DNA of 64,000 nucleotides from Candidatus Omnitrophota bacterium (GTDB lineage: Bacteria > Omnitrophota > Gorgyraeia > Gygaellales > Profunditerraquicolaceae): NCBI GenBank assembly GCA_030650425.1, contig JAUSED010000003.1, positions 71,903-135,902 of the forward strand, in the 5' to 3' direction. Below, piece after piece: positions 24,988 through 51,944 of the stretch. The position numbers and the translations under genes were made by a program. Below the pieces are notes generated by a model. That model made no database searches. It was not told where the DNA came from and saw nothing but the letters and a program-made list of their open reading frames with translations. Position 1 is the first letter of the stretch, and every line of letters begins with the position of its first letter.

Positions 24988-25014
24988 CTTAGAAACAGGG
25001 AGAAACAAGGAAAC

Positions 25015-25045
25015 AAGGACCGTTTCCTTTCAGGAAACGGTCCTT
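25015..25045 (+). terminator. Hairpin 'aaggaccgtttcc-tttcag-ggaaacggtcctt' (weak T-tract)
   Basis: 13-bp perfect stem; member of the local GGACCGTTTCC terminator family. Confidence 0.4.
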
Positions 25046-25103
25046 AAATTCTCAAAGAGAAAATAGCCGCTGTCCCCTAAGAGAGAAGAGAGGGAGGTTC
25101 AAG

Positions 25104-25262
25104 ATGGACAAATATAGATGCACAGTATGCGGTTATATTTATGACCCTGCGCAGGGTGATGCGAGCGCAGCTATTCCCGCAGGTACGCCTTTTGATAAAT
25201 TACCCGCGGATTGGGTCTGTCCGGAGTGTGGAGTAGGTAAAGATATGTTTGAAAAGGTTTGA
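25104..25262 (+). CDS. rub: Rubredoxin
   Basis: [15 protein letters not shown]...[16 protein letters not shown]; SD AGGGAGG; missed by the ORF track (<60 aa). Confidence 0.85.
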
Positions 25263-25275
25263 AGAGAGGTAAATT

Positions 25276-26832: not shown

Positions 26833-26861
26833 CCTGTTTCATAAGCAGGCGGGGAGGCGCT

Positions 26862-28055: not shown

Positions 28056-28058
28056 ATA

Positions 28059-28235
28059 ATGGGTCCGATAGAAGCTTTGGAGTTGGCGCTGGGAAAAGAA
28101 ATCGAAGCCAGGGATATGTACGAGAAATTCAGTTACCAGTATCCCGCAACAAAAGAGATTTTTACTTTTCTAATGAACGAAGAAGCGAAACATAAACAGC
28201 TGATTGAGAAAAGGATAGTAGAGCTGCAAGATTAG
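28059..28235 (+). CDS. 58-aa two-helix 'half-ferritin' protein (rubrerythrin/ferritin-like ExxH half-site)
   Basis: SD GGGGAGG; 'FLMNEEAKHKQLIEK'; resembles the N-terminal half of the 28711 gene product; not in the ORF track. Confidence 0.4.
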   Translation: MGPIEALELALGKEIEARDMYEKFSYQYPATKEIFTFLMNEEAKHKQLIEKRIVELQD

Positions 28236-28700
28236 ATGAAACAACTTAACGATACTATTGTTCAATTCTTTCAAAAGCAGGGATGTGTTATAATTTCAAG
28301 TATCGATAGCAACGGCTTTCCCCATAGTTCTTGTAAGGGTATAGTCAGGATTGATAAAAAAGGAAGTATTTATTTGCTTGATGCCTACAGGGGCAAAACT
28401 TTTCAAAACCTGCAAAACAATCCTAATGTAAGCGTTACGTCTTTTGACGAAGATAAATTTGTCGGCTACTGCCTTAAAGGAAGGGCGCGCCTTTTATCCA
28501 AAGAGGAAGTTGACGCCGGGATGATCAGGGCTTGGGAGGATAGAATCACCAGCAGGCTGACCCAAAGGTTGCTGAAAAATATCCGCGGTGATGCAAAAGG
28601 ACATCCTGCTCATCCGGAAGCTTTATTACCTAAACCGGAGCATATGATTGTTGTTAGTGTTAAAGAGGTAGTTGATCTTACACCGCACCATTTAAAATAA
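28236..28700 (+). CDS. Pyridoxamine 5'-phosphate oxidase-like FMN-binding split-barrel protein
   Basis: ~150 aa; 'PHSSCKG...YLLDAYRGKTFQNL' pattern typical of PNPOx-like proteins. Confidence 0.55.
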   Translation: MKQLNDTIVQFFQKQGCVIISSIDSNGFPHSSCKGIVRIDKKGSIYLLDAYRGKTFQNLQNNPNVSVTSFDEDKFVGYCLKGRARLLSKEEVDAGMIRAWEDRITSRLTQRLLKNIRGDAKGHPAHPEALLPKPEHMIVVSVKEVVDLTPHHLK

Positions 28701-28710
28701 AGAGGTAGGT

Positions 28711-29187
28711 ATGGGGAACATTTTTAGTGGGAGCGAAATAGTAGCAATCGGGATTCAGATTGAAAAAAACGGCCGCGATTTCTATAATGCGCTTGTCAGG
28801 CAATCGAATAACCAAAAGGCGAGAGAGGTCTTTAAATTCCTGGCAGGCGAAGAGGAGAAACATATAAAGGTATTCCAAGGTATATTGGATAAAACTGAAA
28901 AATTTGAACCTCAAGGTTTAGACGCTGATGATTATTTTGCCTATATGAGCGCTTTGGCAGGCGAGCATGTTTTTACCCAAAAAGAGAAGGGTGAGAAAAT
29001 AGCTAAGGATATTAAGAGTGATAAAGAAGCGATAGATAAAGCCATACGTTTTGAAGAGGATTCTATTGTTTTTTACGCGGGGATGAAAAAAATTGTCCCA
29101 GCGTATGACGTGAAGATAATCGAGGCCTTGATTATACAGGAAGAAGGCCATTTAAAACAGCTTATAGAGATGAAGAAGTTGATTTAG
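28711..29187 (+). CDS. Rubrerythrin-like ferritin-fold diiron protein (no rubredoxin domain)
   Basis: Two ExxH sites 'EEEKH' and 'EEGH' in a four-helix arrangement. Confidence 0.6.
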   Translation: MGNIFSGSEIVAIGIQIEKNGRDFYNALVRQSNNQKAREVFKFLAGEEEKHIKVFQGILDKTEKFEPQGLDADDYFAYMSALAGEHVFTQKEKGEKIAKDIKSDKEAIDKAIRFEEDSIVFYAGMKKIVPAYDVKIIEALIIQEEGHLKQLIEMKKLI

Positions 29188-29197
29188 AAAGGATAAT

Positions 29198-29434
29198 ATG
29201 GCTAAAAACGTAAATGTATACAGCACTCCGACTTGTCCATGGTGTGTAAGGGTTAAGCAGTTTTTAAAAGATAATAATGTTGTTTTCCAAGATTATGATG
29301 TCTCTATTGATCGAGCAAAGGGTGATGAAATGGCGCAAAAGTCCGGCCAGATGAGCGTGCCGGTAATTGATATCGAAGGCGAGATTATCGTCGGATTTGA
29401 TAAAGAGAGGATTAAAGCGGCATTGGGATTATGA
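29198..29434 (+). CDS. Glutaredoxin-like protein (CPWC active site)
   Basis: 'YSTPTCPWCVRVKQFL'; 78 aa thioredoxin fold. Confidence 0.7.
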   Translation: MAKNVNVYSTPTCPWCVRVKQFLKDNNVVFQDYDVSIDRAKGDEMAQKSGQMSVPVIDIEGEIIVGFDKERIKAALGL

Positions 29435-30339
29435 AAATTTACGATCTTATTATTGTGGGCGCGGGGCCGGCGGGGATTACCGCCAGCGTCTACGCCGCGC
29501 GCAAGAAAATGGATTTCTTGGTGATCACCGGAGATATCGGAGGCCAGACTGCTTGGAGCGGCGATATTGAAAATTATACCGGTTATCAATTTGTCACCGG
29601 GCCCGAATTAGTGCGTAAATTCGAAGAACATATGCGCAGCTACGATACCAGCGTCCGGGAAGGCGAGGGAGTAATCGCGGTGGAAAAGAGCGGAGAATTC
29701 ATTTTGGTCGAGACTAATAAGGGAGCCCAATATCAAGCTAAAACCGCGATCATTGCTTCGGGCAAACGCTCAAGAGAACTAGGCGTTCCGGGCGAAAAAG
29801 AATATAAAAATAAAGGGATTAGTTATTGCGCGACTTGCGACGGCCCGCTTTTTAACGGTAAAGCCGTGGCGATTATCGGCGGAGGGAATTCCGCTCTGGA
29901 CGCGTGCCTGCAATTAATCAGGATCGCCAAGTATGTATATATGGTCAATAACCTTCCTAAGCTGGGTGGCGATTCGATTATGCGCCAGAAAGTGGAAGAG
30001 GCAAAAAATGTTGAAATTCTGAATAATGCTAAAGTGGCTGCTATTTTGGGCGATAAAATGGTGAACGCTATTCAGGTAAATCACGAGGGAAAAGAAAGAA
30101 CACTTCAGGTAGAGGGAGTTTTTGTTGAGATTGGGTTAATTCCTAATTCGGATTTTGTTAAGGATGTGGAAAAAAACGCCTCAGGCGAAATTAAAATAAA
30201 TAACCATAACGAAACCAATATCCCCGGTATATTTGCCGCCGGAGACGTTACGGATGTCCCGGAGAAGCAGATCATCATTGCTGCTGGTGAGGGGTCAAAG
30301 GCCTGCCTTCGCGCTTTTCGTTATTTAGCTCAGCATTAA
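29431..30339 (+). CDS. trxB: Thioredoxin-disulfide reductase family flavoprotein
   Basis: 'IVGAGPAGITASVYAAR'; redox 'CATCDG'; 'GGGNSA'. Confidence 0.8.
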   Translation: MKIYDLIIVGAGPAGITASVYAARKKMDFLVITGDIGGQTAWSGDIENYTGYQFVTGPELVRKFEEHMRSYDTSVREGEGVIAVEKSGEFILVETNKGAQYQAKTAIIASGKRSRELGVPGEKEYKNKGISYCATCDGPLFNGKAVAIIGGGNSALDACLQLIRIAKYVYMVNNLPKLGGDSIMRQKVEEAKNVEILNNAKVAAILGDKMVNAIQVNHEGKERTLQVEGVFVEIGLIPNSDFVKDVEKNASGEIKINNHNETNIPGIFAAGDVTDVPEKQIIIAAGEGSKACLRAFRYLAQH

Positions 30340-35019: not shown

Positions 35020-35426
35020 TGGAAATAGCAAGCATACCTTTTAGAAAGTTTGGGCCAAACGACATCCCGAGGCCATGGCTGCCCATTACTATTATAAATC
35101 CCCACGCGGATAAAGAAATCGAAGTATATGGCTTGATTGATACTGGCGCCGATGAATGCGCTTTACCGGCTCAATACGCGCCTCTTATTGGCCATAATTT
35201 GCAGGCAGGTTATCCCAAAGAAATTAATACAGGAAATGGAAAGACATTGGCTTATTCTCATACAATATGTTTAGAAATCCAGGATTTTACAATCAAAGAT
35301 GTTTTGATAGATTTCATGCCTAATCTTTCTGTGCCGCTCTTGGGCACAAAGAGCTTTCTTAGTAATTTTATGCTTACCATAGATTATCCAAATTCTACTT
35401 TTTCAATTATTAAAAGTAAATCGTAG
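35019..35426 (+). CDS. Retropepsin-like (clan AA) aspartic protease domain protein
   Basis: 'LIDTGADECALP' D-T-G-A catalytic motif; 135 aa. Confidence 0.65.
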   Translation: MEIASIPFRKFGPNDIPRPWLPITIINPHADKEIEVYGLIDTGADECALPAQYAPLIGHNLQAGYPKEINTGNGKTLAYSHTICLEIQDFTIKDVLIDFMPNLSVPLLGTKSFLSNFMLTIDYPNSTFSIIKSKS

Positions 35427-35612
35427 AAATAAAATTTTAACTATCCTTCAGGCCGGCGCCTTAAAGAACTAATTGCCGCTTGTGTGCAAAAGAAGGAGAT
35501 TAGCGGATATCTGCAAGTTGGAAGAAGAGAACGCTTATGATACTGAGCCGGAGATGAAGGAGGCATTGGTATTTGTGGATACGGTGAGCTAAAATATACA
35601 TAGATGAGGAAA

Positions 35613-35640
35613 AAATGGGGACAGTCCCCATTTTTTAAGG
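35613..35640. terminator. Bidirectional intrinsic terminator (A-run, TGGGGA-CAG-TCCCCA, T-run)
   Basis: Read directly: 6-bp GC-rich stem flanked by A6 and T6. Confidence 0.55.
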
Positions 35641-35672
35641 TACGGTGTAATAAAAAATATCCTATATTTCGG

Positions 35673-35700
35673 TTGACAAATCCGGAATTTAAGGTATACT
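35673..35700 (+). promoter_or_regulatory. csp promoter TTGACA-16-TATACT
   Basis: Consensus -35 and near-consensus -10 about 125 nt upstream of the cspA ATG (long 5'UTR typical of csp genes). Confidence 0.55.
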
Positions 35701-35736
35701 TAATTCCAATGGTAATAAGGTGGTAGAAGTCTTGAA

Positions 35737-35774
35737 CCGTAAGGAGAAAGAGCGACACGCCTTACGGTTTTTTT
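35737..35774 (+). terminator. Intrinsic terminator-like hairpin inside the csp 5'UTR (possible attenuator)
   Basis: 'ccgtaagg-15nt-ccttacgg' followed by T7, located between the promoter and the SD. Confidence 0.5.
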
Positions 35775-35823
35775 CTACACGGCCGAATTACCAAAATTTA
35801 AGAAGGAAGGAGGAATTGCAGTA

Positions 35824-36024
35824 ATGGCAAAAGGTAAAGTAAAGTGGTTTTCCAACCAGAAAGGTTATGGATTTATTACTCCTGAGAATGGCAGCGATGT
35901 GTTCGTGCATCATACAGCTATACAGGGTGATGGCTATAAGACTTTAGAAGAGGGCCAGGAAGTTGAGTTTGAAATTGAAAAAGGTCCGAAGGGCGAGCAA
36001 GCTACAAAAGTAAACAAGTTATAA
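35824..36024 (+). CDS. cspA: Cold-shock protein (CspA family)
   Basis: '[32 protein letters not shown]' RNP1/RNP2 motifs; SD GGAAGGAGG. Confidence 0.95.
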
Positions 36025-36042
36025 CCTAAAGAAGAAAAAAAT

Positions 36043-36079
36043 GGGGACGGTTCTATTTTTTAGAACCGTCCCTTTTTTT
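36043..36079. terminator. Bidirectional intrinsic terminator; stem identical to the TIRs of repeat copy C
   Basis: A7-'ggggacggttcta ttttt tagaaccgtccc'-T7. Confidence 0.7.
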
Positions 36080-36080
36080 C

Positions 36081-36239
36081 TTGATTTTCTCCAAAAAAAT
36101 GCTATTATAAGTAATGTAAATCAGTTCCGAGTTTAAAGGTGGGTCTGGATTTACTGATGGTTCAGTAGAATAACGAGAAACCTTTGTTAGCCGGTTTTGT
36201 TGGCTAATAAAGGTTTCTCTTTTTTATAGAGGTTATCCG
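36081..36239 (+). promoter_or_regulatory. Promoter (TTGATT-16-TATTAT) plus ~110-nt structured leader ending in an intrinsic terminator directly abutting the Ehr operon SD; candidate riboswitch/attenuator or sRNA
   Basis: Terminator 'gagaaacctttgttagcc-ggttttgtt-ggctaataaaggtttctc-T6' at 36175-36225, then 'atagagg' SD and the GTG at 36240. Confidence 0.3.
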
Positions 36240-38051
36240 GTGCAAATGATTGATCCTCTGGCATTATTTTTTCTTGCCGTAATTTTTATTGTTTCCCTGC
36301 CGTCAGCTATTTACTCCCTTGGTTACCTAAAGAACGAATATTCATCTGCCAAAATAACGCTTGCCTGGGTTTTGTTGGTTGCCTTTGTTTTATCCATGGC
36401 CTTGGTAGTCAGCGTAAGCAACGTTTTGGTTTTTCTTGTGTTTTGGGAGATTATGTCTTTGCTCTCCTATTTTCTGGTCGTCTTTGATACAAAACATGAG
36501 AAATCTATCCAAGCGGGAATGATTTACATTGTGATGACGCATATCGGCACCGCTTTTTTGATCGCCGCGTTTCTCTTAATGTATAAATACGCGCATTCCT
36601 TTGATTTCCTCGCCATAAAGAGCGCCTGCCTGAGTATGCCTGCTCAAACTAGAAATATTGTGTTTTTATTACTCTTGGTTGGTTTCGGTACTAAAGCCGG
36701 AATCGTGCCTTTGCATGTCTGGCTGCCCTATGCCCATCCGCAAGCTCCCAGCCATATTTCAAGTATTATGTCGGGAGTAATGATCAAAACTGCCATTTAT
36801 GGAATTATCCGGTTCGTAATATTTATACTGGGCGCAGGCTCTTCTTGGTGGGGGATATTAATTATAATCCTTGCCTTAATCTCTTGCCTGGTGGGCATTA
36901 TTTACGCGCTGATGGAGCGCGATATTAAAAAGCTGCTTGCCTATTCTAGTGTTGAGAATATGGGAATAATTTTATTAGGAGTAGGGCTTGCCCTCTTTTT
37001 CCAGAGCGTAAATATGCCTTATCTTGCGGTGTTTTCTCTAATCGCAGGATTATATCATTTAGTCAATCACGCGATTTTTAAGGGCCTGCTCTTTTTATGC
37101 GCCGGCAGCGTATATAAAGCTAGCGGGACACGGGATATCGAAAAATTAGGGGGGTTAATTAAGCAAATGCCATTGACAGCGGGATTTTTTCTCTTTGGCG
37201 CGATGGCTATTTCCGGCCTCCCGCCCTTAAACGGCTTTGTGAGTGAATGGCTGACTTTACAGGCCTTCTTTTTAGGGGCTTTTAATACAATAGGAGGAGT
37301 CAAACTTTTTTTAGGGATTTGCGCCGGCCTCTTGGCTTTAACCGGCGGTTTGGCCGCGGCTTGTTTTGTGAAAGCTTTTGGCTTAACTTTCCTCGCGCTT
37401 CCCAGAAGCCATTACGCTAAAGAGGCGCGGGAGGTTGCTTTATCGATGAAGCTGGGGATGTTTTGCTTAGCGCTTCTCGTGCTTATCTTCGGTTTAGCCG
37501 CAGCGATAATTATGAAATTACTGGCCAGAGTTGCAGGCGCGGCATGCGGCATTGATATAGGTAATATGGCATTCTTTTTAAATAATTTCACCCTTAGCCC
37601 GCAGGTGGGCAGGGGTATTTATCTTTCTGTGCCTTTACTGGCGATCTGGCTGATTGTTTTGGGAGTTCTTGGTTTTGCTATCTATAAGCTATTTTGGAAA
37701 GGTAAGTCAGTAATTTATAAAACTTGGGATTGCGGTTATTATAATATGGACTCGCGTAACGAATACACCGCGACTGCTTTTTCCAAGCCCTTTAGGATTG
37801 CCTTTAGTTTCTTTTTGCTCCCTTACCGCAAAACCCAGAAGATTAGAGACTCATTTTATCACGTTAAATCTTTTGCTTATGAAACGCATACGACCCTGAT
37901 TTTTAAAAAATATATCTATGATCCGGCAATTGCCTTAGTTTTAACTACAGCTAAGGCGATGAGGAGGATTCAACCGGGTAGTATCCACCTGTATTTAGGT
38001 TATATTTTTATCACCTTATTATTGTTAATTATCTTTATACACCAATTCTAA
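36240..38051 (+). CDS. EhrA-like antiporter-type membrane subunit (NuoL/MrpA/HyfB family)
   Basis: 603 aa, ~16 TM, conserved 'WLPDAH'-type motif 'WLPYAHPQAPSHIS'. Confidence 0.7.
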   Translation: MQMIDPLALFFLAVIFIVSLPSAIYSLGYLKNEYSSAKITLAWVLLVAFVLSMALVVSVSNVLVFLVFWEIMSLLSYFLVVFDTKHEKSIQAGMIYIVMTHIGTAFLIAAFLLMYKYAHSFDFLAIKSACLSMPAQTRNIVFLLLLVGFGTKAGIVPLHVWLPYAHPQAPSHISSIMSGVMIKTAIYGIIRFVIFILGAGSSWWGILIIILALISCLVGIIYALMERDIKKLLAYSSVENMGIILLGVGLALFFQSVNMPYLAVFSLIAGLYHLVNHAIFKGLLFLCAGSVYKASGTRDIEKLGGLIKQMPLTAGFFLFGAMAISGLPPLNGFVSEWLTLQAFFLGAFNTIGGVKLFLGICAGLLALTGGLAAACFVKAFGLTFLALPRSHYAKEAREVALSMKLGMFCLALLVLIFGLAAAIIMKLLARVAGAACGIDIGNMAFFLNNFTLSPQVGRGIYLSVPLLAIWLIVLGVLGFAIYKLFWKGKSVIYKTWDCGYYNMDSRNEYTATAFSKPFRIAFSFFLLPYRKTQKIRDSFYHVKSFAYETHTTLIFKKYIYDPAIALVLTTAKAMRRIQPGSIHLYLGYIFITLLLLIIFIHQF

Positions 38052-38971
38052 TGATGAAAATTATAATTATCCTGCAATTAGCTTTTTTTATCGCAGCCGC
38101 TCCTTTACTCAACGGCCTGATTACCAAAATAAAGAATAATCTTAGGCTGCGCAAGGGGCAAAGTATTTTCCAGCCGTATTATAATTTAGCTAAACTTTTT
38201 GCCAAGGGAGAGGTGGTTTCGGAAACCGCCTCTTGGATCTTCAAAGTTGCTCCTTGGGTAGTATTTTCTGCCACGCTTAGCGCGGCGTTACTCATTCCTG
38301 TATTTATATTCGCCAGTCCGGCACATCGCCTAGGCGATTTTTTGGCCTTAATTTTTATTTTTGCTTTAGCGCGCTTCTTTTTGGCGCTTGCGGCATTGGA
38401 TACCGGAAGTTCTTTTGGCGGGATGGGTTCATCAAGGGAGATGTTTATTTCCGGCTTGGCTGAGCCGGCGCTTTGTTTAGTCATCTTTAGCCTGTCTTTG
38501 CAATTCGGTTCAACGGATATTTCGGCGTTTAGCGGGATGCATAGGGTATCGGTTTCTTCCGTGGTGGCCGCGTTGGCATTATTCCTGGTGACCCTCGCGG
38601 AGACCTCGCGTATCCCGGTTGATAATCAGGAGACGCATCTGGAACTAACCATGGCGCATGAGGCAATGGTTTTGGAATATTCCGGCCCTTCTTTAGCCTT
38701 ACTCGAGTGGTCTGCCCACATTAAACAGATGATTTTCTTTTTCTTGATCGCTCAGATTGTTTTTCCGATTAGCCTGCCGTTTCTCGGGAGCTTAGTTCAA
38801 ACCTCTGTTTGGGTTATATGCTATTTAGCCAGAATAATGGTTATCGCTGTGATCGTAGCACTGGTCGAGGTTTCCGTAGCCAAAATGAGGTTGTTCAGGG
38901 TAGCGGATTTTCTGGGGTTTGCCTTTGTTTTAGGGGTGATTGCCAGCGTATGCGCTATACTAGGAGTTTAA
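38051..38971 (+). CDS. EhrB-like membrane subunit (NuoH/HycD family)
   Basis: 'RLRKGQSIFQPYYNLAKLF' NuoH-family N-terminal block; 8 TM. Confidence 0.7.
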   Translation: MMKIIIILQLAFFIAAAPLLNGLITKIKNNLRLRKGQSIFQPYYNLAKLFAKGEVVSETASWIFKVAPWVVFSATLSAALLIPVFIFASPAHRLGDFLALIFIFALARFFLALAALDTGSSFGGMGSSREMFISGLAEPALCLVIFSLSLQFGSTDISAFSGMHRVSVSSVVAALALFLVTLAETSRIPVDNQETHLELTMAHEAMVLEYSGPSLALLEWSAHIKQMIFFFLIAQIVFPISLPFLGSLVQTSVWVICYLARIMVIAVIVALVEVSVAKMRLFRVADFLGFAFVLGVIASVCAILGV

Positions 38972-38972
38972 T

Positions 38973-39608
38973 ATGCAAGGAATAATTTTATTCGCGGTTT
39001 TAGCTTCAACTTACCTTATGCTGATCGCTAAAAGGATGCCGGCCTTGATCCGGAGTTTTCGTTATCAATCATTTTGTTTATTCCTGGCGACCTTGCTCAT
39101 CGCGTTGAGTGAGCGCCAATTAGATTTGTATATTATTTCCGGCCTGTTATTTATTTTAAAAGTTTTGCTGATCCCGCAGTTATTGTACCGGATCTTAAGA
39201 AGGACGAATACAAAGGAAGATTTAGGGTTATTTATTAATCCCCAACTTTCTTTATTGTTGGCTTTGGTTTTTAGTTATTTATCATGGATCTTTGCCGCGC
39301 ATCTGGTTACTCCGGTTAAAGAAATCCAGATTAGTATCCTTGCCGTTACTTTTTTTATAATTTTAGCCGGGATATTTTTAATGATTTTCAGGATGACCGC
39401 GCTGGCCCAGATTACCGGGCTATTGGTGATGGAGAATGGCCTATTTCTGCTGGCTTCAGCGGTCTCGGGCGGAATGCCATTTTTCGTAGAGATCGCCATA
39501 TTCTTTGATGTGTTTATGAGCGTCTTGATTATGGGTTTTTTTGTCTATAAGATCAGCAAGCTATTTACACATATTGACGTGAATAAACTCTCGCGTCTAA
39601 GAGGATAA
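38973..39608 (+). CDS. EhrC-like small membrane subunit (HyfE family)
   Basis: 211-aa polytopic membrane protein in the conserved position. Confidence 0.5.
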   Translation: MQGIILFAVLASTYLMLIAKRMPALIRSFRYQSFCLFLATLLIALSERQLDLYIISGLLFILKVLLIPQLLYRILRRTNTKEDLGLFINPQLSLLLALVFSYLSWIFAAHLVTPVKEIQISILAVTFFIILAGIFLMIFRMTALAQITGLLVMENGLFLLASAVSGGMPFFVEIAIFFDVFMSVLIMGFFVYKISKLFTHIDVNKLSRLRG

Positions 39609-39612
39609 CCTG

Positions 39613-41070
39613 ATGCAGATATTTATCATTCTCGGAATACCAATTTTTCTTTCGCTGGGAGCGTTTATTTTCGGGAAGAAACGGTTTTTTGGGATAATTA
39701 ATTGCAGCGGCTATCTGGCAATCTTGTGCTGCAGCCTGATTTTATTTAAAGAAACGGTGTTTACCGGAAAGACTAAAGAGTTTTTTGGCTTTATCTATCT
39801 GGATGCCTTAAGCGCATTTTTTATTCTGGTTATTTCAGTGGTAGCTTTTGCTGCCGCGCTTTATTCCATCGGTTACATCCGAAAGGATATTCAACGAGGA
39901 GTTATAACTGAGAGCAAAGCGAGGGTTTATTATCTTTTTTTCAATCTTTTCTGTCTCTCGATGTTTTTTGTCCCCGCGCTGGATAACTTGGGTATGCTTT
40001 GGGTGGCTGTTGAAATGACCACGCTTATCTCGGCATTCCTGGTAGGGTTTTATAATTCCAAGGAATCCGTCGAGGCAGCCTGGAAATATATCATTATCTG
40101 CTCGGTGGGGATAATTTTCGCGCTTTTAGGTACGATTCTTTTTTCCTACGCCTTTTCCATCTCCGGATTAACGAAAAGCCTGAATTGGTCCGAGATTACC
40201 CCGGTCGCGCATATCTTGGATAAAAATATCCTGAAAGTAGCGTTTATCTTTATTCTCGTTGGATACGGGACTAAGGCGGGCCTTGCGCCGATGCATACCT
40301 GGCTGCCGGACGCCCACAGCCAAGCCGTTGCTCCGATTAGCGCGCTTCTCTCCGGGGTATTGCTCAAGACAGCTATTTACGCCATTTTAAGGTTCGGCAT
40401 AATTATTATTAAGAGCGTAGGCTTCGCGTATTTCGCGCATTTGATGATTCTCTTTGGCGCGATTTCATTGGTTATCTCAAGCGGTTTTATCCTGGTTCAG
40501 AAAGACTTGAAGCGGCTCCTGGCTTACAGCAGCATCGAGCATATCGGCATCATCGCAATCGGTTTTGGCCTGGGTTCGCCTTTAGCTATCGCCGGAGCAC
40601 TACTGCATATTTTTAACCACGCGGTAACCAAATCACTGATGTTTTTTGGCGCGGGTAATATTGTCAGCGCTTATAAAAAACATAATATGCACGCTATCCG
40701 GGGAGTAATTAAGGCCTTGCCTTTTACGGGGATGATGCTGCTTTTAGGGTGTTTCGCGCTTACCGGCTTTCCGCCATTCTCCATATTTATAAGCGAGATA
40801 ATGATTATCATCGCTGCTTTTACCAACGGCGCGTATTTTATCGGCGCTTTGTTGTTATTATTGCTTGCGGTAATTTTTGGAGCGTTCATTTATCATTTCG
40901 GAAGAATGCTTTTTGGCAATCTTCCTAAAAGTATGTCTGCGGCAGGGGAGCCGTTCAGCGGAAAGTTGGCGTTTTTGTTTTTACTCTTTTTGATCTGCGC
41001 TTTAGGGATAAGCTTGCCATTTATGAATAAGGATACGCTATGGATATTCCAACAGTTATTGCACGGATAA
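39613..41070 (+). CDS. EhrD-like antiporter-type membrane subunit (NuoM/N / HyfF family)
   Basis: 'GTKAGLAPMHTWLPDAHSQA' conserved antiporter motif. Confidence 0.7.
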   Translation: MQIFIILGIPIFLSLGAFIFGKKRFFGIINCSGYLAILCCSLILFKETVFTGKTKEFFGFIYLDALSAFFILVISVVAFAAALYSIGYIRKDIQRGVITESKARVYYLFFNLFCLSMFFVPALDNLGMLWVAVEMTTLISAFLVGFYNSKESVEAAWKYIIICSVGIIFALLGTILFSYAFSISGLTKSLNWSEITPVAHILDKNILKVAFIFILVGYGTKAGLAPMHTWLPDAHSQAVAPISALLSGVLLKTAIYAILRFGIIIIKSVGFAYFAHLMILFGAISLVISSGFILVQKDLKRLLAYSSIEHIGIIAIGFGLGSPLAIAGALLHIFNHAVTKSLMFFGAGNIVSAYKKHNMHAIRGVIKALPFTGMMLLLGCFALTGFPPFSIFISEIMIIIAAFTNGAYFIGALLLLLLAVIFGAFIYHFGRMLFGNLPKSMSAAGEPFSGKLAFLFLLFLICALGISLPFMNKDTLWIFQQLLHG

Positions 41071-42617
41071 GAAATAATTTTCCGGAGTTTAGCGAGCTTG
41101 CTAGCGCGCAAAACTATGCGGATGAGCTTAATATTAAGGTAAGTCCTCAGGATTTCAAGCATACCTGTCTTGCCTTGCATAAAATCCTTCCTTCTCCGGT
41201 GATGATGCTTTTTGCCCAGGATGAGCGCGCAGGTGAAGGGATTTTTAGGATTAATTCCGTATTCGTGGATTTTAAAAACAAAGAGTGGGTTATGGTGAGT
41301 ATGGATATCCCGCCGGAAAATCCATGTTTTGATTCTTTGGCCAAGAGCATCTATTCGGCCAGCCTTTTTGAAAGGGAGATTTGGGAGATGTTCGGCGTTG
41401 AACCAAAAGGCCATCCTGATCTCAGGAGATTGAGGCTGCATGATGAAGTTTGGCCAAAGGGGAATTATCCGTTACGCAAAGATTTCCAAAAAGTAGAGCC
41501 CGGGGACTTGAGCGATTATAAATTCAGCAGGGTAGAGGGAGAAGGGATATTTGAAGTTCCGGTTGGGCCTGTGCACGCCGGGATCATCGGCCCCGGGCAT
41601 TTCCGTTTTAGCGTTGCCGGAGAGCCGATTATTAGCTTAGAAACAAGGCTGGGGTTTAGCCATCGGGGAGTGGAAAAAATTTTTGAAGGAAAATCTTGTT
41701 TAGAGGCGGTTAGAATTTCAGAATGTGTTTCCGGTGATGCTTCTTTCGCGCATAGCCTGGCGTTTACTCAGGCGGCTGAGAAGATTTTCGGGATACAAAT
41801 ACCCGCGGCCGCGGCTTATTCAAGGGCTATCTTTTTAGAGCTTGAGCGGATGTATAATCATGTGAATGATCTCGGTGGAATAGCGCTGGATGCGGGTTTT
41901 AGCTTTCCGGCTGCCTACGCCTCGGTGATCAAGGAGGTGATTCTGCAACTAAACGCCCGGCTTAGCGGGAGCAGGTACCTTAGAAAAATTAACGCCATAG
42001 GCGGAATTTCAATTGGCCTAGACGAAACCAAAAAGCAGATGCTTCTTAGTTCCCTTAAAGAGCTAAAACGTGATTTTAAGGAGTTAGTTAAAATTTTGTA
42101 TTCCAGTGTTTCTTTCATGGACAGGATAGATACTACCGGTGTTTTACGCAAGAAGACCGCCGAAGATTTGGGGGTAACCGGCCTGGTTGCCCGCGCTTCG
42201 GGGATTCCCACGGATTTAAGGAAATATTTCCCCGGGGTATATAAAGAAGCTAAATTTAGAATGGCGATACAGGAATCCGGGGATGTTTTGGCACGTTTAC
42301 GCGTAAGGATTTTTGAATTTGAAGAATCATGCCGGCTGATTGAAGAATTTTCCGGAAAGCTGATTAAGGGTGAGGAGATTAAAGTTAACGCGGAGCTAAA
42401 GGGAGGAAGCGCCTTAGGTTATACAGAAGGATGGCGAGGCCCGGTTTTATATTGGCTTAAAACAGATACTAGAGGTTTAGTCACCAGGTGTAAGATTGTC
42501 GATCCATCTTTCCTTAACTGGCAGGGGCTTTCCTACGCAGTGTTGGGAAACATCATCCCTGATTTTCCGCTCTGTAATAAAAGCTTTGATTTGTCATATT
42601 CAGGGAATGATCTTTAA
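41040..42617 (+). CDS. EhrL-like fused NuoC-NuoD / hydrogenase large subunit homolog LACKING the [NiFe] cysteine ligands
   Basis: NuoC block 'FEREIWEMFGV'; L1 region 'RISECVSGDASFAHS' instead of RxCGxCxxxH; C-terminus 'VDPSFLNWQG' instead of DPCxxCxxH/R. Confidence 0.75.
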   Translation: MDIPTVIARIRNNFPEFSELASAQNYADELNIKVSPQDFKHTCLALHKILPSPVMMLFAQDERAGEGIFRINSVFVDFKNKEWVMVSMDIPPENPCFDSLAKSIYSASLFEREIWEMFGVEPKGHPDLRRLRLHDEVWPKGNYPLRKDFQKVEPGDLSDYKFSRVEGEGIFEVPVGPVHAGIIGPGHFRFSVAGEPIISLETRLGFSHRGVEKIFEGKSCLEAVRISECVSGDASFAHSLAFTQAAEKIFGIQIPAAAAYSRAIFLELERMYNHVNDLGGIALDAGFSFPAAYASVIKEVILQLNARLSGSRYLRKINAIGGISIGLDETKKQMLLSSLKELKRDFKELVKILYSSVSFMDRIDTTGVLRKKTAEDLGVTGLVARASGIPTDLRKYFPGVYKEAKFRMAIQESGDVLARLRVRIFEFEESCRLIEEFSGKLIKGEEIKVNAELKGGSALGYTEGWRGPVLYWLKTDTRGLVTRCKIVDPSFLNWQGLSYAVLGNIIPDFPLCNKSFDLSYSGNDL

Positions 42618-42620
42618 ATT

Positions 42621-43130
42621 ATGATAGATATACTAAAGAATAGAATTTTAAAAGGCATCGTTACCCGGCAGATTGAGCCGGAATTAGCGCAAGAGATAGA
42701 GGCGGTTGGCGCGGAATTAAGATCCCTGATTCAGCAAAGATTCGGCAGGTCTTTACATCTACGCGAAGTAGACACTGGTTCCTGCGCTGCCTGTGAATCG
42801 GAGATCATCGCGGCGAATAATCCTATTTACGACCTGCAGCGCTTCGGAATAAATTTCACCGCTTCTCCCCGCCACGCCGACGCGCTCTTAGTTACCGGCC
42901 CGGTCTCGAAAAATATGCTCGCGGCTTTAAAAAAGACTTACGCGGCTATGCCTGAACCCAAATTTGTGGTTACTTGCGGAGATTGCGCGCTGGATGGCGG
43001 TTCATTCAAAGATTCTTATTATGTCGAAGGAGGGGTAAAAAAAATATTACCGGTTGTTTTGCATATCCCCGGATGCCCTCCCAGCCCGCTGGTGATCATT
43101 AAAACATTGTTAGCCTTTTTGGTGGCCTAG
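42621..43130 (+). CDS. EhrS-like small subunit (NuoB / hydrogenase small subunit homolog, N2-type [4Fe-4S] cysteines retained)
   Basis: 'GSCAACESE', 'TCGDCALDGG', 'IPGCPP'. Confidence 0.75.
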   Translation: MIDILKNRILKGIVTRQIEPELAQEIEAVGAELRSLIQQRFGRSLHLREVDTGSCAACESEIIAANNPIYDLQRFGINFTASPRHADALLVTGPVSKNMLAALKKTYAAMPEPKFVVTCGDCALDGGSFKDSYYVEGGVKKILPVVLHIPGCPPSPLVIIKTLLAFLVA

Positions 43131-47716: not shown

Positions 47717-48817
47717 ATGGAAACCTATTTTTTAAAGAACGAAGACCTGTTGAAGTTTTATGAGCGCATAGCCCAGGGATATGAGTTGTATGTGCCTACC
47801 CGGGTTAAATCCCCGATTAAGAAGGATGAATGTGCCTGTAAGTCTGACCTTCCCACCGATGATTTTTTATTAAGAAAATTTTCGCAAATCGGCAAGGAAG
47901 AGATAGTCTTTGGTGATTACCGCGCGGTAGAGCCGACTCGCGCCTTTTTCACGCATTATAAAGAAGAGGTTTGTGAATATTTTGAAGGTAATGACGTAAG
48001 AGAGAAAAAAGAACGGCCCCTTGCTTTGTGCGGCATAAAGAATTGCGATTTATTTTCGTTAAAAGTACAGGATTTTGTATTTTTAGGCGGCAATGAAGCC
48101 GACCCGCTTTATAAGAAAAGAAGGGATGATGCTTTAATCATTGCCGGTGACTGCCCGTATTTCAAAGAAGTTTGTTTTTGCCGGGCATTTGATATCAATC
48201 CCTATCCTACCGAAGGCTTTGATTTTAACCTTTCTCCGTTAAATAACGGCTATCTCCTTGATGTAGCATCGCAAAAAGCGAAAATAATTGTTCTGTCTCT
48301 GAAAAAGCTGTTGATTCCGGCGACATTAGGACAACTTTCGGGAAGGGGGGCAAAGAGAGAGTCGGTAAATATGCGCATGGATGCGCATCTGGTGCCGCAT
48401 AAGATCCCTAAAAAAGAGGTTTTACAAGATATAGTTTTAGCAGGTTACAACTCAGGGGTTTGGGTTGATGAGATGCGCACCTGTGTTGAATGCAACGGTT
48501 GTGTTTTTATGTGCGATACCTGCCACTGTTTTTTACTTTCAGACGACACTTCTTCGGGAAATGCCAGAAAGCTGCGGCTTTGGGATGGCTGCCTGTTAAA
48601 AAATTTTACCAAGGTAGCCGGAGGAGCCAATCCTTTACGTTTACGTTATATGCGGCTGCGTAACCGCTATTTAAAGAAATTTGATTTTTTTGTTGAGAAT
48701 TTAGGGTTTCAAGCCTGCTGCGGTTGCGGCAGGTGTATAGAAGTCTGCCCCGGGAAAATAGATATCCGCCGGATATTACGAAGATTAAATGAAGAAAAAC
48801 ATATACCAACCGGTTAA
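47717..48817 (+). CDS. Fe-S subunit, sulfhydrogenase beta (HydB) / anaerobic sulfite reductase AsrA-like
   Basis: Multiple Cys clusters 'CVECNGCVFMCDTCHC', 'CCGCGRCIEVCPG'. Confidence 0.55.
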   Translation: METYFLKNEDLLKFYERIAQGYELYVPTRVKSPIKKDECACKSDLPTDDFLLRKFSQIGKEEIVFGDYRAVEPTRAFFTHYKEEVCEYFEGNDVREKKERPLALCGIKNCDLFSLKVQDFVFLGGNEADPLYKKRRDDALIIAGDCPYFKEVCFCRAFDINPYPTEGFDFNLSPLNNGYLLDVASQKAKIIVLSLKKLLIPATLGQLSGRGAKRESVNMRMDAHLVPHKIPKKEVLQDIVLAGYNSGVWVDEMRTCVECNGCVFMCDTCHCFLLSDDTSSGNARKLRLWDGCLLKNFTKVAGGANPLRLRYMRLRNRYLKKFDFFVENLGFQACCGCGRCIEVCPGKIDIRRILRRLNEEKHIPTG

Positions 48818-49607
48818 GGCTGTCATCGAAGAAATCATCGAAGAGACAGCCACGATCAAGACTTTCCGGATTAGGCCGGAGGTAGAATTTAGCTTTGCTA
48901 CCGGGCAATTCATCGAAGTGACTGTGCCGGGGGTAGGGGAAGCGCCTTTTACCCCTTCTTCTGATCCGGGAGTCAAGGATAGGCTGGATCTCACGATAAT
49001 GAAAGCAGGCGAGGTTACCTCTAAATTACATAGTATGGGTAAAGGCGGCCTGCTTGGTATCCGCGGGCCCTATGGTAAGGGGTATCCTTTGGATCAATTT
49101 AAAGGAAAAGATATCCTGATTGTCGGCGGCGGCGTGGGCCTGGCGCCCTTACGTTCGTTATTATTCAGCCTTTTTTCCGGGCTTGATCAATACAACAAAG
49201 TTGTCTTACGTTACGGCGCGCGTTCTCCGGCAGATATAGTTTATAAAGCACTCCTTCCTGAATGGGCTAAGCAGGATAAAGTTGATCTTTTAACCAGCGT
49301 TGATGTAGGTGATGCTGGCTGGCAGGGAAATGTGGGGTTGGTGACTACTATCTTAGGCGCTGCCCCGGTAGATTTCGCCAGCGCTATCGGTATAGTTTGC
49401 GGCCCGCCGATTATGATGAAATTCGTTACTTTAAAATTGCTGGATTTAGGTTTTAAGCCGTGCGATATATATTTATCCATGGAGAAGAGTATGTCCTGCG
49501 GCCTGGGTAAATGCGGGCACTGCCGGATCGGGAAATATTACGCCTGTAAAGACGGCCCGGTGTTTACCTATGAACAATTAAAGGATATCCATGACATTTG
49601 GGACTAA
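48789..49607 (+). CDS. FAD/NAD(P)H-binding subunit with C-terminal [2Fe-2S] (HydG/AsrB/PyrK-like)
   Basis: 'ILIVGGGVGLAPL'; 'CGLGKCGHCRIG'. Confidence 0.7.
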   Translation: MKKNIYQPVKAVIEEIIEETATIKTFRIRPEVEFSFATGQFIEVTVPGVGEAPFTPSSDPGVKDRLDLTIMKAGEVTSKLHSMGKGGLLGIRGPYGKGYPLDQFKGKDILIVGGGVGLAPLRSLLFSLFSGLDQYNKVVLRYGARSPADIVYKALLPEWAKQDKVDLLTSVDVGDAGWQGNVGLVTTILGAAPVDFASAIGIVCGPPIMMKFVTLKLLDLGFKPCDIYLSMEKSMSCGLGKCGHCRIGKYYACKDGPVFTYEQLKDIHDIWD

Positions 49608-49611
49608 AGGC

Positions 49612-49668
49612 GAAACAGTTTCCGATCCAAAGCGGAAACTGTTTCCGAGCCAATCGGGAAACAGTTTC
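49612..49668. promoter_or_regulatory. Three tandem palindromes GGAAAC-N-GTTTCC at ~21-22-bp spacing (candidate operator)
   Basis: 'cgaaacagtttccg', 'cggaaactgtttccg', 'gggaaacagtttct' read directly between the hydG-like stop and the ferredoxin start. Confidence 0.4.
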
Positions 49669-49675
49669 TAAGCTT

Positions 49676-50176
49676 ATGCTTATGAAGAGGCTATTTATAG
49701 ACTTAGAGATCTGTAATAAATGCAAAGAGTGTAAGGTTGCCTGCGATTATTTTTATCATCCGCAGAATAACGGGGTTACTTCTTTACGTGAATATGCCAC
49801 CTTTGCCACGATCTGCCGGCATTGTGAAGAAGCGCCTTGCGTGCATGCCTGCTATCATAATGCCTTGGAGCGTGCCTCTGATGGCCACATTAAGCGCTAC
49901 AAAATGCGCTGCACAAGTTGTAAATCCTGTTCAGTGGCTTGCCCGTTTGGGATCATCTACCAGGATTTTATCCCTTACCTTGATTCTAAATGCGATTATT
50001 GTGTAGGTAAAGCTGCAAAAATGCCTGAATGCTCATTTAGCTGCCCGGAAAAAGCCATAGAGGTAAAAGAGGTAGAAGAGAACCTTGAACAAGATATTTA
50101 TTTTGTGGGAGAACATCTGGCAGTGCATACACCTAGATGGTCAAGAGAGGATATACAGCTTCCTAGAAAGAAATGA
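49676..50176 (+). CDS. Poly-ferredoxin-like 4Fe-4S protein (start uncertain)
   Basis: 'CNKCKECKVACD', 'CRHCEEAPCVHAC', 'CTSCKSCSVACP', 'CDYCVGK...CSFSCP'. Confidence 0.6.
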   Translation: MLMKRLFIDLEICNKCKECKVACDYFYHPQNNGVTSLREYATFATICRHCEEAPCVHACYHNALERASDGHIKRYKMRCTSCKSCSVACPFGIIYQDFIPYLDSKCDYCVGKAAKMPECSFSCPEKAIEVKEVEENLEQDIYFVGEHLAVHTPRWSREDIQLPRKK

Positions 50177-51084
50177 AATATATTCTTTACTACTTAATAT
50201 TCCCGGGTTTTTTATTCAGTTCAATAGTGGGACTCTTAGCCTGTTGGGTTGACAGGAAAGTTACCGCGCGCTTACAGTGGAGGGTTGGCCCGCCGTGGCA
50301 TCAGAATTTCACCGATCTAGTAAAATTGTTAGGTAAGGAAGTGATTGTGCCCGAAAGCGCAAAGTTAACCTTTTTACTTTCACCTTATCTTGGATTGATT
50401 AGCGTGGTATTAGTTTGCACCGGATTAGGCAGGATAATCATTTTACCGCTGGATAGTTTCGGAGTAGATTTAATCGTATTCTTTTATCTTTTGACTGTTC
50501 CGGCAATAGCTCTGATTATCGGAGCATCGGCTTCAAGAAACCCATTGGCTTCGGTGGGGGCGTCAAGAGAAGCCAAACTCATCCTGGCTTATGAACTGCC
50601 TTTTATTTTGGCAATCATTGTTGTGGTAATCAAAAGTAGAGGCGCAATACAAATAGGCCAGATTATCCAATATCAGATGATCTTTGGTTCAAACCTTTTC
50701 TCTATCTCAGGATTTTTAAGCTTCATTGCCGCCATTTTTTGCATTCAGGCAAAGCTAGGGACGGGCCTTTTTGATATTGCTGAGGCGGATCAGGAGATTA
50801 TGTGCGGTACTTTGATTGAATACTCGGGGCTCCCCCTGGCAATCTTTAAACTGACCAAGGCGCTCATGCTTTATATTGTCCCGCTTTTTATCATTGTTTT
50901 ATTTCTAGGCCGCGATTTAAGCCCGGTATTCTTAACCGCCAAATATTTGATGTTGTTAGTGATCATCATTTTGTTTAAAAATACAAATCCGCGTTTGCGT
51001 ATTGATCAGGCCTTAAGGTTCTTCTGGAGGATACCGACGCTTCTGGCGGGAGCAGCTGTGGTGTTAGCGATATGCGGATTATAA
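50173..51084 (+). CDS. Ech/Mbh hydrogenase membrane subunit (NuoH/EchB/HycD family)
   Basis: 'KVTARLQWRVGPP' NuoH-family N-terminal motif. Confidence 0.8.
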   Translation: MKYILYYLIFPGFLFSSIVGLLACWVDRKVTARLQWRVGPPWHQNFTDLVKLLGKEVIVPESAKLTFLLSPYLGLISVVLVCTGLGRIIILPLDSFGVDLIVFFYLLTVPAIALIIGASASRNPLASVGASREAKLILAYELPFILAIIVVVIKSRGAIQIGQIIQYQMIFGSNLFSISGFLSFIAAIFCIQAKLGTGLFDIAEADQEIMCGTLIEYSGLPLAIFKLTKALMLYIVPLFIIVLFLGRDLSPVFLTAKYLMLLVIIILFKNTNPRLRIDQALRFFWRIPTLLAGAAVVLAICGL

Positions 51085-51085
51085 T

Positions 51086-51511
51086 ATGGATATAAGAAAA
51101 AAAGCCTTAACGAAGTCCATTTGGGTATTTCATGTAAGCGCAGGCTCATGCAATAACTGCGACATAGAAATATTCGATTGTTTTACCCCCCGGTTTGATG
51201 TCGAGCGTTTGGGCATTCAGCTTGCCGGTTCAGTTCGTCATGCCGACGCGCTCTTGATCACGGGAGTAATCAACAAAAAAACCATCCCCATCGTGAAAAA
51301 GATTTACGAACAGGCGCCCAAGCCCTGTATGGTGATCGCCTGCGGCATCTGCGCTAATTCGCAGCATATGTTCAGGTTTGGTTATAATGTGGAAAAACCC
51401 TTGGATAAAATACTGCCGGTTGATGTCTATATTCCGGGTTGTCCGCCTAAACCCGAAGCGATAATTTCAGGCATTGTGAAGTTGATAGATAAGCTAAAGA
51501 AAGGTAAGTAG
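51086..51511 (+). CDS. [NiFe] hydrogenase small subunit (NuoB/EchC-like)
   Basis: 'GSCNNCDIE', 'ACGICANS', 'IPGCPP'. Confidence 0.85.
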   Translation: MDIRKKALTKSIWVFHVSAGSCNNCDIEIFDCFTPRFDVERLGIQLAGSVRHADALLITGVINKKTIPIVKKIYEQAPKPCMVIACGICANSQHMFRFGYNVEKPLDKILPVDVYIPGCPPKPEAIISGIVKLIDKLKKGK

Positions 51512-51515
51512 GCTT

Positions 51516-51944
51516 ATGGATATGCGGGATAGGATTAAAGAGAAGCTGCAGGATAAGCTAAGCGATTGGCTTGAGCCCTCTATTAAAAGGGTATATTTCA
51601 GCATAGACAAAAAAGATATCTTTAAGGTGACACAGGTATTGTTTAAAGAATTACAGCTAAGGTTTATTACGGCTTCAGCCGTGGATAACCCCGATTCTCT
51701 GGGAATTGTTTATCACTTTAGCAATGACCCCGCCGGCGAGGTTTATTCCGTGCGCGTTTTACTAGAGGATAAAATTAAACCCGAGATCCAATCGATCAGC
51801 CCTATTTTTCCGGCTGCGGAGTGGATCGAGCGCGAGATTTGGGAGATGTTCGGGATCAATTTTATCGGGCATCCTAATTTAAAGAAGCTTCTACTTGCCG
51901 ATGATTGGCCGGAGGGCGAGTATCCCTTGAGGAATAAAAAATGA
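51516..51944 (+). CDS. Hydrogenase NuoC-like subunit (EchD-like)
   Basis: 'AAEWIEREIWEMFGINFIGHP'. Confidence 0.8.
   Translation: MDMRDRIKEKLQDKLSDWLEPSIKRVYFSIDKKDIFKVTQVLFKELQLRFITASAVDNPDSLGIVYHFSNDPAGEVYSVRVLLEDKIKPEIQSISPIFPAAEWIEREIWEMFGINFIGHPNLKKLLLADDWPEGEYPLRNKK

Follow-up and report, generated by a model that had tools for sequence, protein, structure and literature searches.

An Ehr-type operon without [NiFe] ligands and its conserved leader RNA in a Candidatus Omnitrophota genome

The ehr operon and its products

The stretch of DNA analysed here, referred to as the window, comprises 64,000 nucleotides (nt) from a Candidatus Omnitrophota bacterium (GenBank assembly GCA_030650425.1, contig JAUSED010000003.1, positions 71,903 to 135,902) and contains six genes related to subunits of complex I and of group 4 [NiFe] hydrogenases. 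An initial annotation had read these genes, in the order NuoL-, NuoH-, HyfE- and NuoN-like subunit, NuoC-D fusion and NuoB-like subunit, as an EhrABCDLS cluster, and this order is in agreement with the Pfam and NCBIfam content of the genes and with the naming in Geobacter. The six open reading frames (ORFs) are intact and all lie on the forward strand within positions 36240-43130 (Table 1). They overlap or are spaced by only 1-4 nt, are therefore translationally coupled, and form one autonomous operon behind a conserved leader with a terminator hairpin. The gene order is co-linear with that of Escherichia coli hyfB-C-E-F-G-I, minus hyfD and hyfH. The evidence supports placing the cluster in the Ehr (energy-converting/Ech-hydrogenase-related) family, which is already named and widespread. 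The cluster thus represents an ordinary member of a known, uncharacterised family that is already present in public databases, and not a new family. New are the traits of the Omnitrophota clade, a conserved leader of ehrA, and a genuine hydrogenase located 4.6 kb downstream.

The positions of the metal ligands in the large subunit, EhrL, were read from three independent alignments: with HycE and MbhL, with the large subunit of the in-window hydrogenase, and with 128 family representatives. In all three, the four cysteine positions of the [NiFe] centre correspond to S231, A234, S519 and G522, and none of the four cysteines is present. In the first motif (L1), RVCGICGFAH of HycE is represented by C229-V-S231-G-D-A234-S-F-A-H238, and in the second (L2), DPCYSCTD by D517-L-S519-Y-S-G522-N-D524 at the extreme C-terminus of EhrL. 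As a positive control within the same window, the downstream hydrogenase large subunit displays RICGICSSSH, DPCYCC and the EEP-type glutamate. The loss of the L1 cysteines that the initial annotation had described was thereby borne out, and the alignment to HycE, MbhL and NuoD homologues, which it had proposed as a check, revealed no cysteine pairs hidden by gaps at either end. Two of its details had to be revised. The arginine of the L1 motif aligns with C229 and not with R225, and VDPSFLNWQG, which had been taken for the C-terminal motif, comprises residues 487-496 and falls on the PSF.N.Q strand that is conserved in NuoD/HycE (raPSFvNlQs in Nqo4); the cysteine loss at the C-terminus had nevertheless been recognised correctly, as the true L2 equivalent, FDLSYSGND, is devoid of both cysteines. 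In addition, the beta1-beta2 loop of EhrL reads HAGIIGPGHF, so that G184 occupies the position of the proton-relay glutamate. This residue aligns with E21 of MbhL, which we take to be the proton donor in true hydrogenases.

The closest relatives in sequence and fold are E. coli formate hydrogenlyase-1 and hydrogenase-4 (Hyc, PDB 7Z0S; Hyf; group 4a). A phmmer search against PDB sequences returned E. coli HycE as the top match to EhrL (2.6e-60), and Hyc subunits matched EhrS (1.8e-32), EhrA (7.7e-69) and EhrB (4.2e-38). The AlphaFold model of EhrL (predicted local distance difference test 89.2, predicted template modelling score 0.92) found its best PDB fold match in HycE (7z0s_E; TM-score 0.95, root mean square deviation 2.1 A, 31% identity). 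That such a confident model superposes on HycE indicates that the fold is intact and that the metal site alone is gone. It is therefore well supported that EhrL keeps the fold of HycE, cannot bind a NiFe centre, and neither makes nor uses H2. The same cysteine-less motifs occur in 118 close homologues, which excludes a sequencing error. A look-up of the exact EhrL sequence of the window returned no record, and the relatives P0010 and P0067 took its place. Among the 118 homologues, which are 70-86% identical to the window's EhrL, 121 of the 525 positions are invariant. Judged by these positions and by the six ORFs being intact in every long contig examined, the ehr genes appear to be under purifying selection. 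The pocket of EhrL is predicted to provide no quinone site of known type either: in an alignment to Thermus thermophilus Nqo4, the positions of His38 and Tyr87, which we take to be the quinone ligands of complex I, are those of I183 and G232. A new metal site formed by C229, C484 and C512 in the old pocket was considered as a possibility, but many Ehr lineages outside the clade also have C512, and some members of the clade lack C229.

In the small subunit, EhrS, residues C55, C58, C122 and C152 occupy the positions of the four cysteines of the cluster in HycG and MbhJ, and the protein is predicted to hold one hydrogenase-type [4Fe-4S] cluster. The cysteines are arranged in the CxxC manner of hydrogenases and not as the tandem CC of the N2 cluster of complex I. 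EhrS of the window keeps only the first approximately 15 residues (ILKNRILKGIVT) of an N-terminal 2x[4Fe-4S] domain; the remainder is deleted, as it is in Omnitrophota and Saganbacteria. A NuoI-like subunit is also missing from the cluster, as had been annotated: no ORF with a CxxCxxCxxxC motif occurs within 36240-43130, every ORF of the window with a ferredoxin motif is located outside this region, and its sole NuoI-like ORF belongs to a separate operon. In the ehr loci of the close clade, a NuoI-like query had no match.

The membrane arm is composed of EhrB (NuoH type), EhrC (HyfE type) and two subunits of the antiporter type, EhrD and EhrA. In EhrB, the acidic loop E..P.D..E...EL...E...EYSG is conserved as in HycD, to which it was aligned (7z0s_D). 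EhrA starts some 70 residues later than HycC/HyfB, as its alignment with HycC (7z0s_C) begins at HycC residue 73 and its match to the NCBIfam HyfB model (613 bits, cutoff 667) at model position 78. EhrD similarly missed the HyfF cutoff (467 of 610 bits), and across the operon all Hyf and Nuo equivalog cutoffs of NCBIfam were missed, with the generic NuoB subfamily model alone being passed. For EhrC, neither a Pfam match nor a PDB sequence match at E <= 1 was obtained. Motif residues of antiporter-type subunits are present in both EhrA (E70, K152, K230, H273, H277, K281, E336) and EhrD (E134, K221, K300, H332, H336, K340, E395). Going by the known motifs of NuoL/M/N, we take E70/E134 to be the glutamate of transmembrane helix (TM) 5, K152/K221 the lysine of TM7, K230/K300 within D[IL]K[KR]LLAYSS the lysine of TM8, H273/H277/K281 and H332/H336/K340 the HxxxHxxxK motif, and E336/E395 the glutamate of TM12. 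Together, these residues presumably constitute a lateral proton-transfer chain.

Table 1. Positions of the ehr operon, its leader and surrounding features in the window (aa, amino acids; nt, nucleotides)
Feature	Position	Strand	Description
Putative sigma-70-like promoter of the ehr operon	36081-36108	+	TTGATT, 16 nt spacer, TG-extended TATTAT; consensus scan
Conserved leader element	36127-36149	+	CCGAGTTTAAAGGTGGGTCTGGA; loop and inner stem of small hairpin P1
Terminator/attenuator hairpin with T-run	36175-36229	+	20 bp; invariant 5' arm GAGAAACCTT
ehrA	36240-38051	+	HyfB/HycC/NuoL-like antiporter-type subunit, 603 aa; Pfam PF00361 (Proton_antipo_M) 7.9e-60
ehrB	38051-38971	+	HycD/NuoH-like, 306 aa; Pfam NADHdh 1.5e-30; HycD 7z0s_D 4.2e-38
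ehrC	38973-39608	+	HyfE-like membrane subunit, 211 aa; NCBIfam NF008556 (hydrogenase 4 membrane subunit) 3.6e-23, below cutoff
ehrD	39613-41070	+	HyfF/NuoN-like antiporter-type subunit, 485 aa; Pfam PF00361 2.9e-50
ehrL	41040-42617	+	Fused NuoC and NuoD/HycE-like large subunit, 525 aa, without NiFe ligands; Pfam Complex1_30kDa and Complex1_49kDa
EhrL, L1 equivalent	41721-41753	+	ECVSGDASFAH
EhrL, PSF.N.Q strand	42498-42527		VDPSFLNWQG
EhrL, L2 equivalent	42585-42611	+	FDLSYSGND; nine residues preceding the final L525
ehrS	42621-43130	+	NuoB/HycG/MbhJ-like small subunit, 169 aa; Pfam Oxidored_q6
Apparent stress block	23574-30339		Oxidative/nitrosative stress
cspA	35824-36024
cspA terminator	36043-36073
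Group-4 [NiFe] hydrogenase operon	47717-56082
Hydrogenase large subunit	51941-53149		Positive control
NuoI-like ORF	55462-56082		Part of a separate operon
Candidate HycI-type maturation protease	61866-62324		By translation alone

Distribution of Ehr and traits of the Omnitrophota clade

The EhrL protein of the window is identical to one annotated in a Candidatus Omnitrophota metagenome-assembled genome (MAG) at NCBI, and more than 100 clusters at 70-86% identity originate from Omnitrophota metagenomes. Among 1.84 billion representatives, 922 relatives were found at E <= 1e-30, and the 128 best full-length representatives at 50% identity were used for a family alignment and a neighbour-joining tree. 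About 100 of the 128 are cysteine-less and share the signature ER[IV]SGD...H / NKSFNLSY[SA]GND; some 22 keep all four cysteines (CCCC), together with SFELCYxCxD. The cysteine-less sequences formed one clade beside a CCCC grade in this tree, which is crude and includes no authenticated Geobacter or curated HydDB reference. We have taken the CCCC relatives as group-4f-like, a label based on the literature on comammox Nitrospira and not on HydDB classification.

A scan of GTDB with one genome per species yielded at least 594 relatives, of which the best 80 loci were examined. These belong to Omnitrophota, Saganbacteria, Nitrospirota, Acidobacteriota, Methylomirabilota, Chloroflexota, Verrucomicrobiota, Patescibacteria, Bacillota, Actinomycetota, Methanosarcina and Nitrososphaeria. 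The cysteine-less signature and the ehr gene order were present in about 70 of the 80 species-level genomes sampled, nearly all of the 80 loci showed the order A-B-C-D-L-S or S-A-B-C-D-L, and about 75 of 82 related loci had the order of the window. Two Nitrospirota MAGs (L030, L058) carry two complete ehr operons in tandem (A-B-C-D-L-S twice), the large-subunit signatures of which differ (ERVSGTSS... and [AG/AS]RVSGDTT...).

Earlier studies have described the Geobacter sulfurreducens genes GSU0739-45 as EhrA-1/B/C/D/L/S, with a NuoL-like EhrA-1 and a HyfE-like EhrC, and all of these subunits have been detected by proteomics, at higher levels on formate. Ehr has further been reported in Margulisbacteria and Saganbacteria, in ammonia-oxidising archaea and in bacteria of the candidate phyla radiation (CPR), and in comammox Nitrospira, where it is placed near group 4f, lacks the CxxC motifs and has no known function. 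The Ehr complexes of Geobacter, Saganbacteria, Nitrospira, CPR bacteria and ammonia-oxidising archaea share with that of the window the six subunit types and their order, a large subunit without CxxC motifs and a NuoB-like small subunit. The initial assignment to Ehr is therefore upheld by the gene order, by the position within the cysteine-less clade and by relatives from lineages with published Ehr. Its remark that the family had been predicted only by comparative genomics is slightly outdated given the Geobacter proteomics, but our literature search, too, found no biochemical or structural study of any Ehr complex.

Several traits distinguish the Omnitrophota/Saganbacteria clade from most Ehr. 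The otherwise invariant glutamate of HAGIIEPGHF is replaced by glycine (G184) in 116 of the 118 close homologues, and the L1 arginine by cysteine (C229) in 108. EhrS is short, with its ferredoxin-like domain deleted, and EhrA lacks about 70 N-terminal residues. Omnitrophota ehr operons are additionally set apart from other Ehr by a clade-specific 5' leader RNA.

Outside this clade, the small subunit varies in its cofactor content. EhrS of Acidobacteria, Bacillota and Nitrososphaeria carries an N-terminal 2x[4Fe-4S] ferredoxin-like domain, which is degenerate in some. EhrS proteins of 260-350 amino acids with a NuoI-like domain and two CxxCxxCxxxC motifs are encoded at loci L018, L024, L034, L036, L041, L044 and L060, and versions with a degenerate domain at L016, L017, L026, L033, L045, L048, L049, L051 and L052. 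The occurrence of this fusion in many lineages suggests that the family ancestrally received electrons. In MAGs of Patescibacteria (L021, L028, L054) and in Methanosarcina (L071, L082), EhrS contains one cysteine in total, and at the aligned cluster positions of L021 and L071 it reads GSDNSTE or GSTNACE, GDDA, and PGNPP or PGDPP. The operon is intact in these cases, and the five complexes would hold no redox cofactor.

Leader RNA and genomic neighbourhood

The ehr operon is preceded by a leader of 125 nt, and the ribosome-binding site and GTG start codon of ehrA directly follow the hairpin and T-run. Upstream of ehrA, both the window and four related loci (L001:5040, L002:5070, L003:5076, L019:2281) carry a single copy of the element CCGAGTTTAAAGGTGGGTCTGGA, and similar -35 and -10 boxes could be read ahead of the leader in L002, L003 and L019. 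Taken over window positions 36081-36239 and the metagenomic loci L083-L147, the invariant element is also given as CCGAGTTTWAAGGTGGGTCTGGA. A scan of metagenomes with a 20-nt core of the element produced 65 matches, 56 of which were located directly upstream of an EhrA-like ORF; of the remaining ones, four were cut by contig ends, three had the full leader, and two were due to chance. In an alignment of 41 leader sequences, GAGAAACCTT was invariant although it lies outside the search pattern. The structure was supported by pairing in 91% of the alignment cells, compared to 36-66% in slid controls, and by a covariation score of 0.235, compared to at most 0.089 in slid controls and reached by none of 500 shuffles. 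The chief source of this support is the distal pairs of the terminator stem with 11-19 double changes; the conserved block showed almost no covariation, partly because it had served as the search pattern. An antiterminator pairing of the loop AAGGU with the arm ACCUU, which involves invariant bases, was considered and set aside; it was part of the minimum free energy structure of the nascent leader in only 26 of 52 sequences. No Rfam family matched the ehr leader in a scan of positions 35400-36400.

Based on these sequence features, the leader is a candidate transcription attenuator or riboswitch, apparently confined to the ehr operons of Omnitrophota. A more far-reaching proposal, which we regard as rather doubtful, is that CCGAGUUUWAAGGUGGGUCUGGA, followed by an A-rich linker and the terminator with its invariant arm GAGAAACCUU, represents a ligand-sensing riboswitch or attenuator of a kind not described before, which would serve the ehr operons of Omnitrophota exclusively, and that the complex is a minimal energy converter with one cluster and with neither NiFe nor the relay glutamate. 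Outside Omnitrophota, a gene for an ArsR/SmtB-family regulator is located directly upstream of ehr in about 11 loci (L023, L031, L040, L047, L052, L078, L081 and others), a regulatory solution that differs from the leader RNA of Omnitrophota.

In the window, the operon is situated between cspA, which has its own terminator, and mnmA, ahead of which there is no terminator. Over cspA, Rfam returned a sub-threshold match to the cspA thermoregulator (within 35612-36075; 52.5 bits, gathering score 78), and its other matches were chance. Approximately 4.6 kb downstream of ehr lies the operon of a genuine group-4 [NiFe] hydrogenase, encoding an Fe-S (Fer4_22) protein, an FAD/NAD-binding protein, a ferredoxin, NuoH-, NuoB- and NuoC-like subunits, the large subunit, a PhoU-domain protein, an antiporter-type subunit and a NuoI-like subunit. 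The presence of a real hydrogenase beside ehr indicates that Ehr is an additional, paralogous machine and not a replacement. Further downstream, an ORF was picked out by its translation as a candidate HycI-type maturation protease. The region upstream of ehr contains an apparent block of oxidative and nitrosative stress genes, with a hybrid-cluster protein (Prismane) identified by Pfam and, by eye only, a thiol-peroxidase-like fusion and FNR-like reductase, flavodiiron-like, rubrerythrin/ferritin-like and thioredoxin-reductase-like proteins.

All-against-all clustering of 725 flanking ORFs from the 80 genomic loci did not identify any conserved partner gene, but only promiscuous families (ABC ATPases, response regulators and kinases), and no neighbour recurred upstream or downstream of ehr in about 60 metagenomic loci of the Omnitrophota type. 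In one Omnitrophota relative (L001:12205-21578), ehr is directly followed by genes for a Rex-like repressor, NuoE-like and NuoF/GltD-like proteins and two [FeFe]-hydrogenase-type proteins. This set is absent from the window, and the genes downstream of ehr in the Omnitrophota relative L002 are unrelated.

Possible function and its alternatives

We favour, at a probability of roughly one half, a reading in which Ehr acts as a redox-coupled ion pump. Electrons would be delivered by a separately encoded low-potential donor, for example ferredoxin, docking where the NuoI-like domain was formerly located, and would pass through the single cluster of EhrS to an acceptor bound where EhrL, EhrS and EhrB meet, in the remodelled pocket; this acceptor would be neither a quinone nor a proton. 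This electron transfer would drive the translocation of H+ or Na+, and the reverse reaction, driven by the ions, may also be possible. Expression would be gated by transcription attenuation in the leader. A redox capability is suggested by the four cluster cysteines that are conserved in the clade and by the 2x[4Fe-4S] fusion in other lineages, and a pumping capability by the conserved motif residues of EhrA and EhrD and the acidic loop of EhrB. The initial annotation had similarly proposed an unknown redox reaction, not involving H2, coupled to ion translocation; the exclusion of H2 is well founded in the loss of the ligands, and the coupling is what we infer.

A precedent exists in the MBS/Mbx complex of Pyrococcus furiosus (PDB 6U8Y), a relative of the membrane-bound hydrogenase MBH and a group-4 descendant without NiFe cysteines that is still a redox-driven ion pump and reduces sulfane sulfur. 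Its large and small subunits match EhrL and EhrS at 7.3e-23 and 5.9e-17, so that MbsL is far more distant from EhrL than is HycE. The subunit sets differ as well, MBS being built from 13 subunits, with a NuoI-like one among them and a complete Mrp module, and MBS/Mbx is archaeal and linked to sulfur, to which nothing at the ehr locus points. Compared to Hyc and Hyf, ehr lacks the NiFe ligands, HycF/HyfH (NuoI-like), HycB/HyfA, HyfD, FdhF and a maturation protease within the operon. Among the hallmarks of group 4 [NiFe] hydrogenases, the four cysteine ligands and the beta1-beta2 glutamate (G184 in EhrL) are missing, and so is a NuoI/HycF/MbhN-like relay subunit.

Several observations weigh against the redox-coupled pump. 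There is no module for electron input: the operon contains no NuoI-like, NuoE/F/G or FdhA gene, the window contains no gene long enough for FdhA up to about 30 kb to either side of it, and neither the family as a whole nor the clade has a recurrent flanking gene. The exchanges of the relay glutamate to glycine and of the L1 arginine to cysteine indicate that the pocket is more degraded in this clade than in most Ehr. Furthermore, the retention of the whole operon in CPR bacteria and Methanosarcina with a cluster-less EhrS indicates that some Ehr must work without electron transfer. Finally, no acceptor can be named, and the only experimental result found for any Ehr complex is its detection by proteomics.

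Alternatively, Ehr might be a cation/proton antiporter, either independent of redox reactions or gated by them, in which EhrL and EhrS form a pseudo-enzyme cap or gate on an Mrp-like machine and the cluster is structural or serves as a redox sensor. We regard this as possible, but clearly less probable than the pump. It would fit a stepwise loss of cofactors, in which every Ehr has lost the NiFe centre, the 2x[4Fe-4S] domain has degenerated in EhrS of the Acidobacteria type and been deleted in the clade studied here, and the last cluster is lost in CPR bacteria and Methanosarcina; this graded loss bears on whether the complexes remain redox enzymes. The lack of donor or acceptor genes in or near the operon, the loss of the proton-relay glutamate in the Omnitrophota clade and the fully conserved antiporter-type motif residues point in the same direction. 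However, EhrL and EhrS rank with the most strongly conserved products of the operon, at 70-86% identity across Omnitrophota, the four cysteines of EhrS are kept in the clade, and the coupling loop of EhrB is conserved. The operon further differs from Mrp antiporters in having NuoH-, NuoB- and NuoCD-like genes and just two antiporter-type subunits; to our knowledge, Mrp antiporters need no NuoH, NuoB or NuoD homologues.

It appears improbable that Ehr anchors a formate dehydrogenase in the membrane and serves as its energy-coupling module, with electrons from formate passing, in the manner of formate hydrogenlyase, to an unknown acceptor. Such a role has been proposed for Riflemargulisbacteria and Saganbacteria with fdhA and nuoE/F-like genes in the same genomes, and it would be in line with the higher levels of the Geobacter subunits on formate and with formate hydrogenlyase subunits of E. 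coli being the closest solved relatives. However, the connecting HycF/NuoI-like and HycB-like subunits are absent, as is a gene of FdhA length from the surroundings of ehr in the window, and an FdhA-like neighbour did not recur among the 80 genomic and about 60 metagenomic loci.

The remaining alternative, that the cluster is a true hydrogenase or a complex I that is decaying or has been misread, is highly improbable, and pseudogene, sequencing error, true hydrogenase and complex I were rejected on the basis of the three alignments, the intact and strongly conserved ORFs and the 118 cysteine-less homologues, with the in-window hydrogenase showing what a complete set of motifs looks like. The operon shares with complex I (NDH-1) the NuoCD, NuoB and NuoH folds and antiporter-type subunits with their motif residues, but has I183 and G232 at the presumed quinone-ligand positions, CxxC instead of tandem CC, and, with six genes in all, falls short of the core set, as NuoI, NuoA/J/K and NuoEFG are missing. 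What such a misreading could draw on is a weak Pfam NiFeSe_Hases match of EhrL (25.4 bits) and its NCBI name, 'NADH-quinone oxidoreductase subunit C'. In addition, Pfam PF00346 has been used as a marker of 'respiratory complex I' in a survey of Omnitrophota (PMC10066038).

As both EhrL and the in-window hydrogenase match PF00346, some of the complex I reported in Omnitrophota may be Ehr or hydrogenase. Labels based on this family or on the NCBI name can mistake Ehr for complex I and thereby distort metabolic reconstructions of Omnitrophota. Ehr occurs in hundreds of species, among them nitrifiers, acetogens, CPR bacteria, Omnitrophota and ammonia-oxidising archaea, and stands between group-4 hydrogenases and complex I in evolution. 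With six genes, one Fe-S cluster, no accessory redox subunits and a hydrogenase nearby, the complex described here is a good candidate for heterologous expression and cryo-electron microscopy. The conserved leader RNA provides a direct experimental handle on the signal that controls the ehr operon and, if it is indeed ligand-sensing, its ligand, an ion or a metabolite, would identify the substrate or the trigger of the Ehr family.

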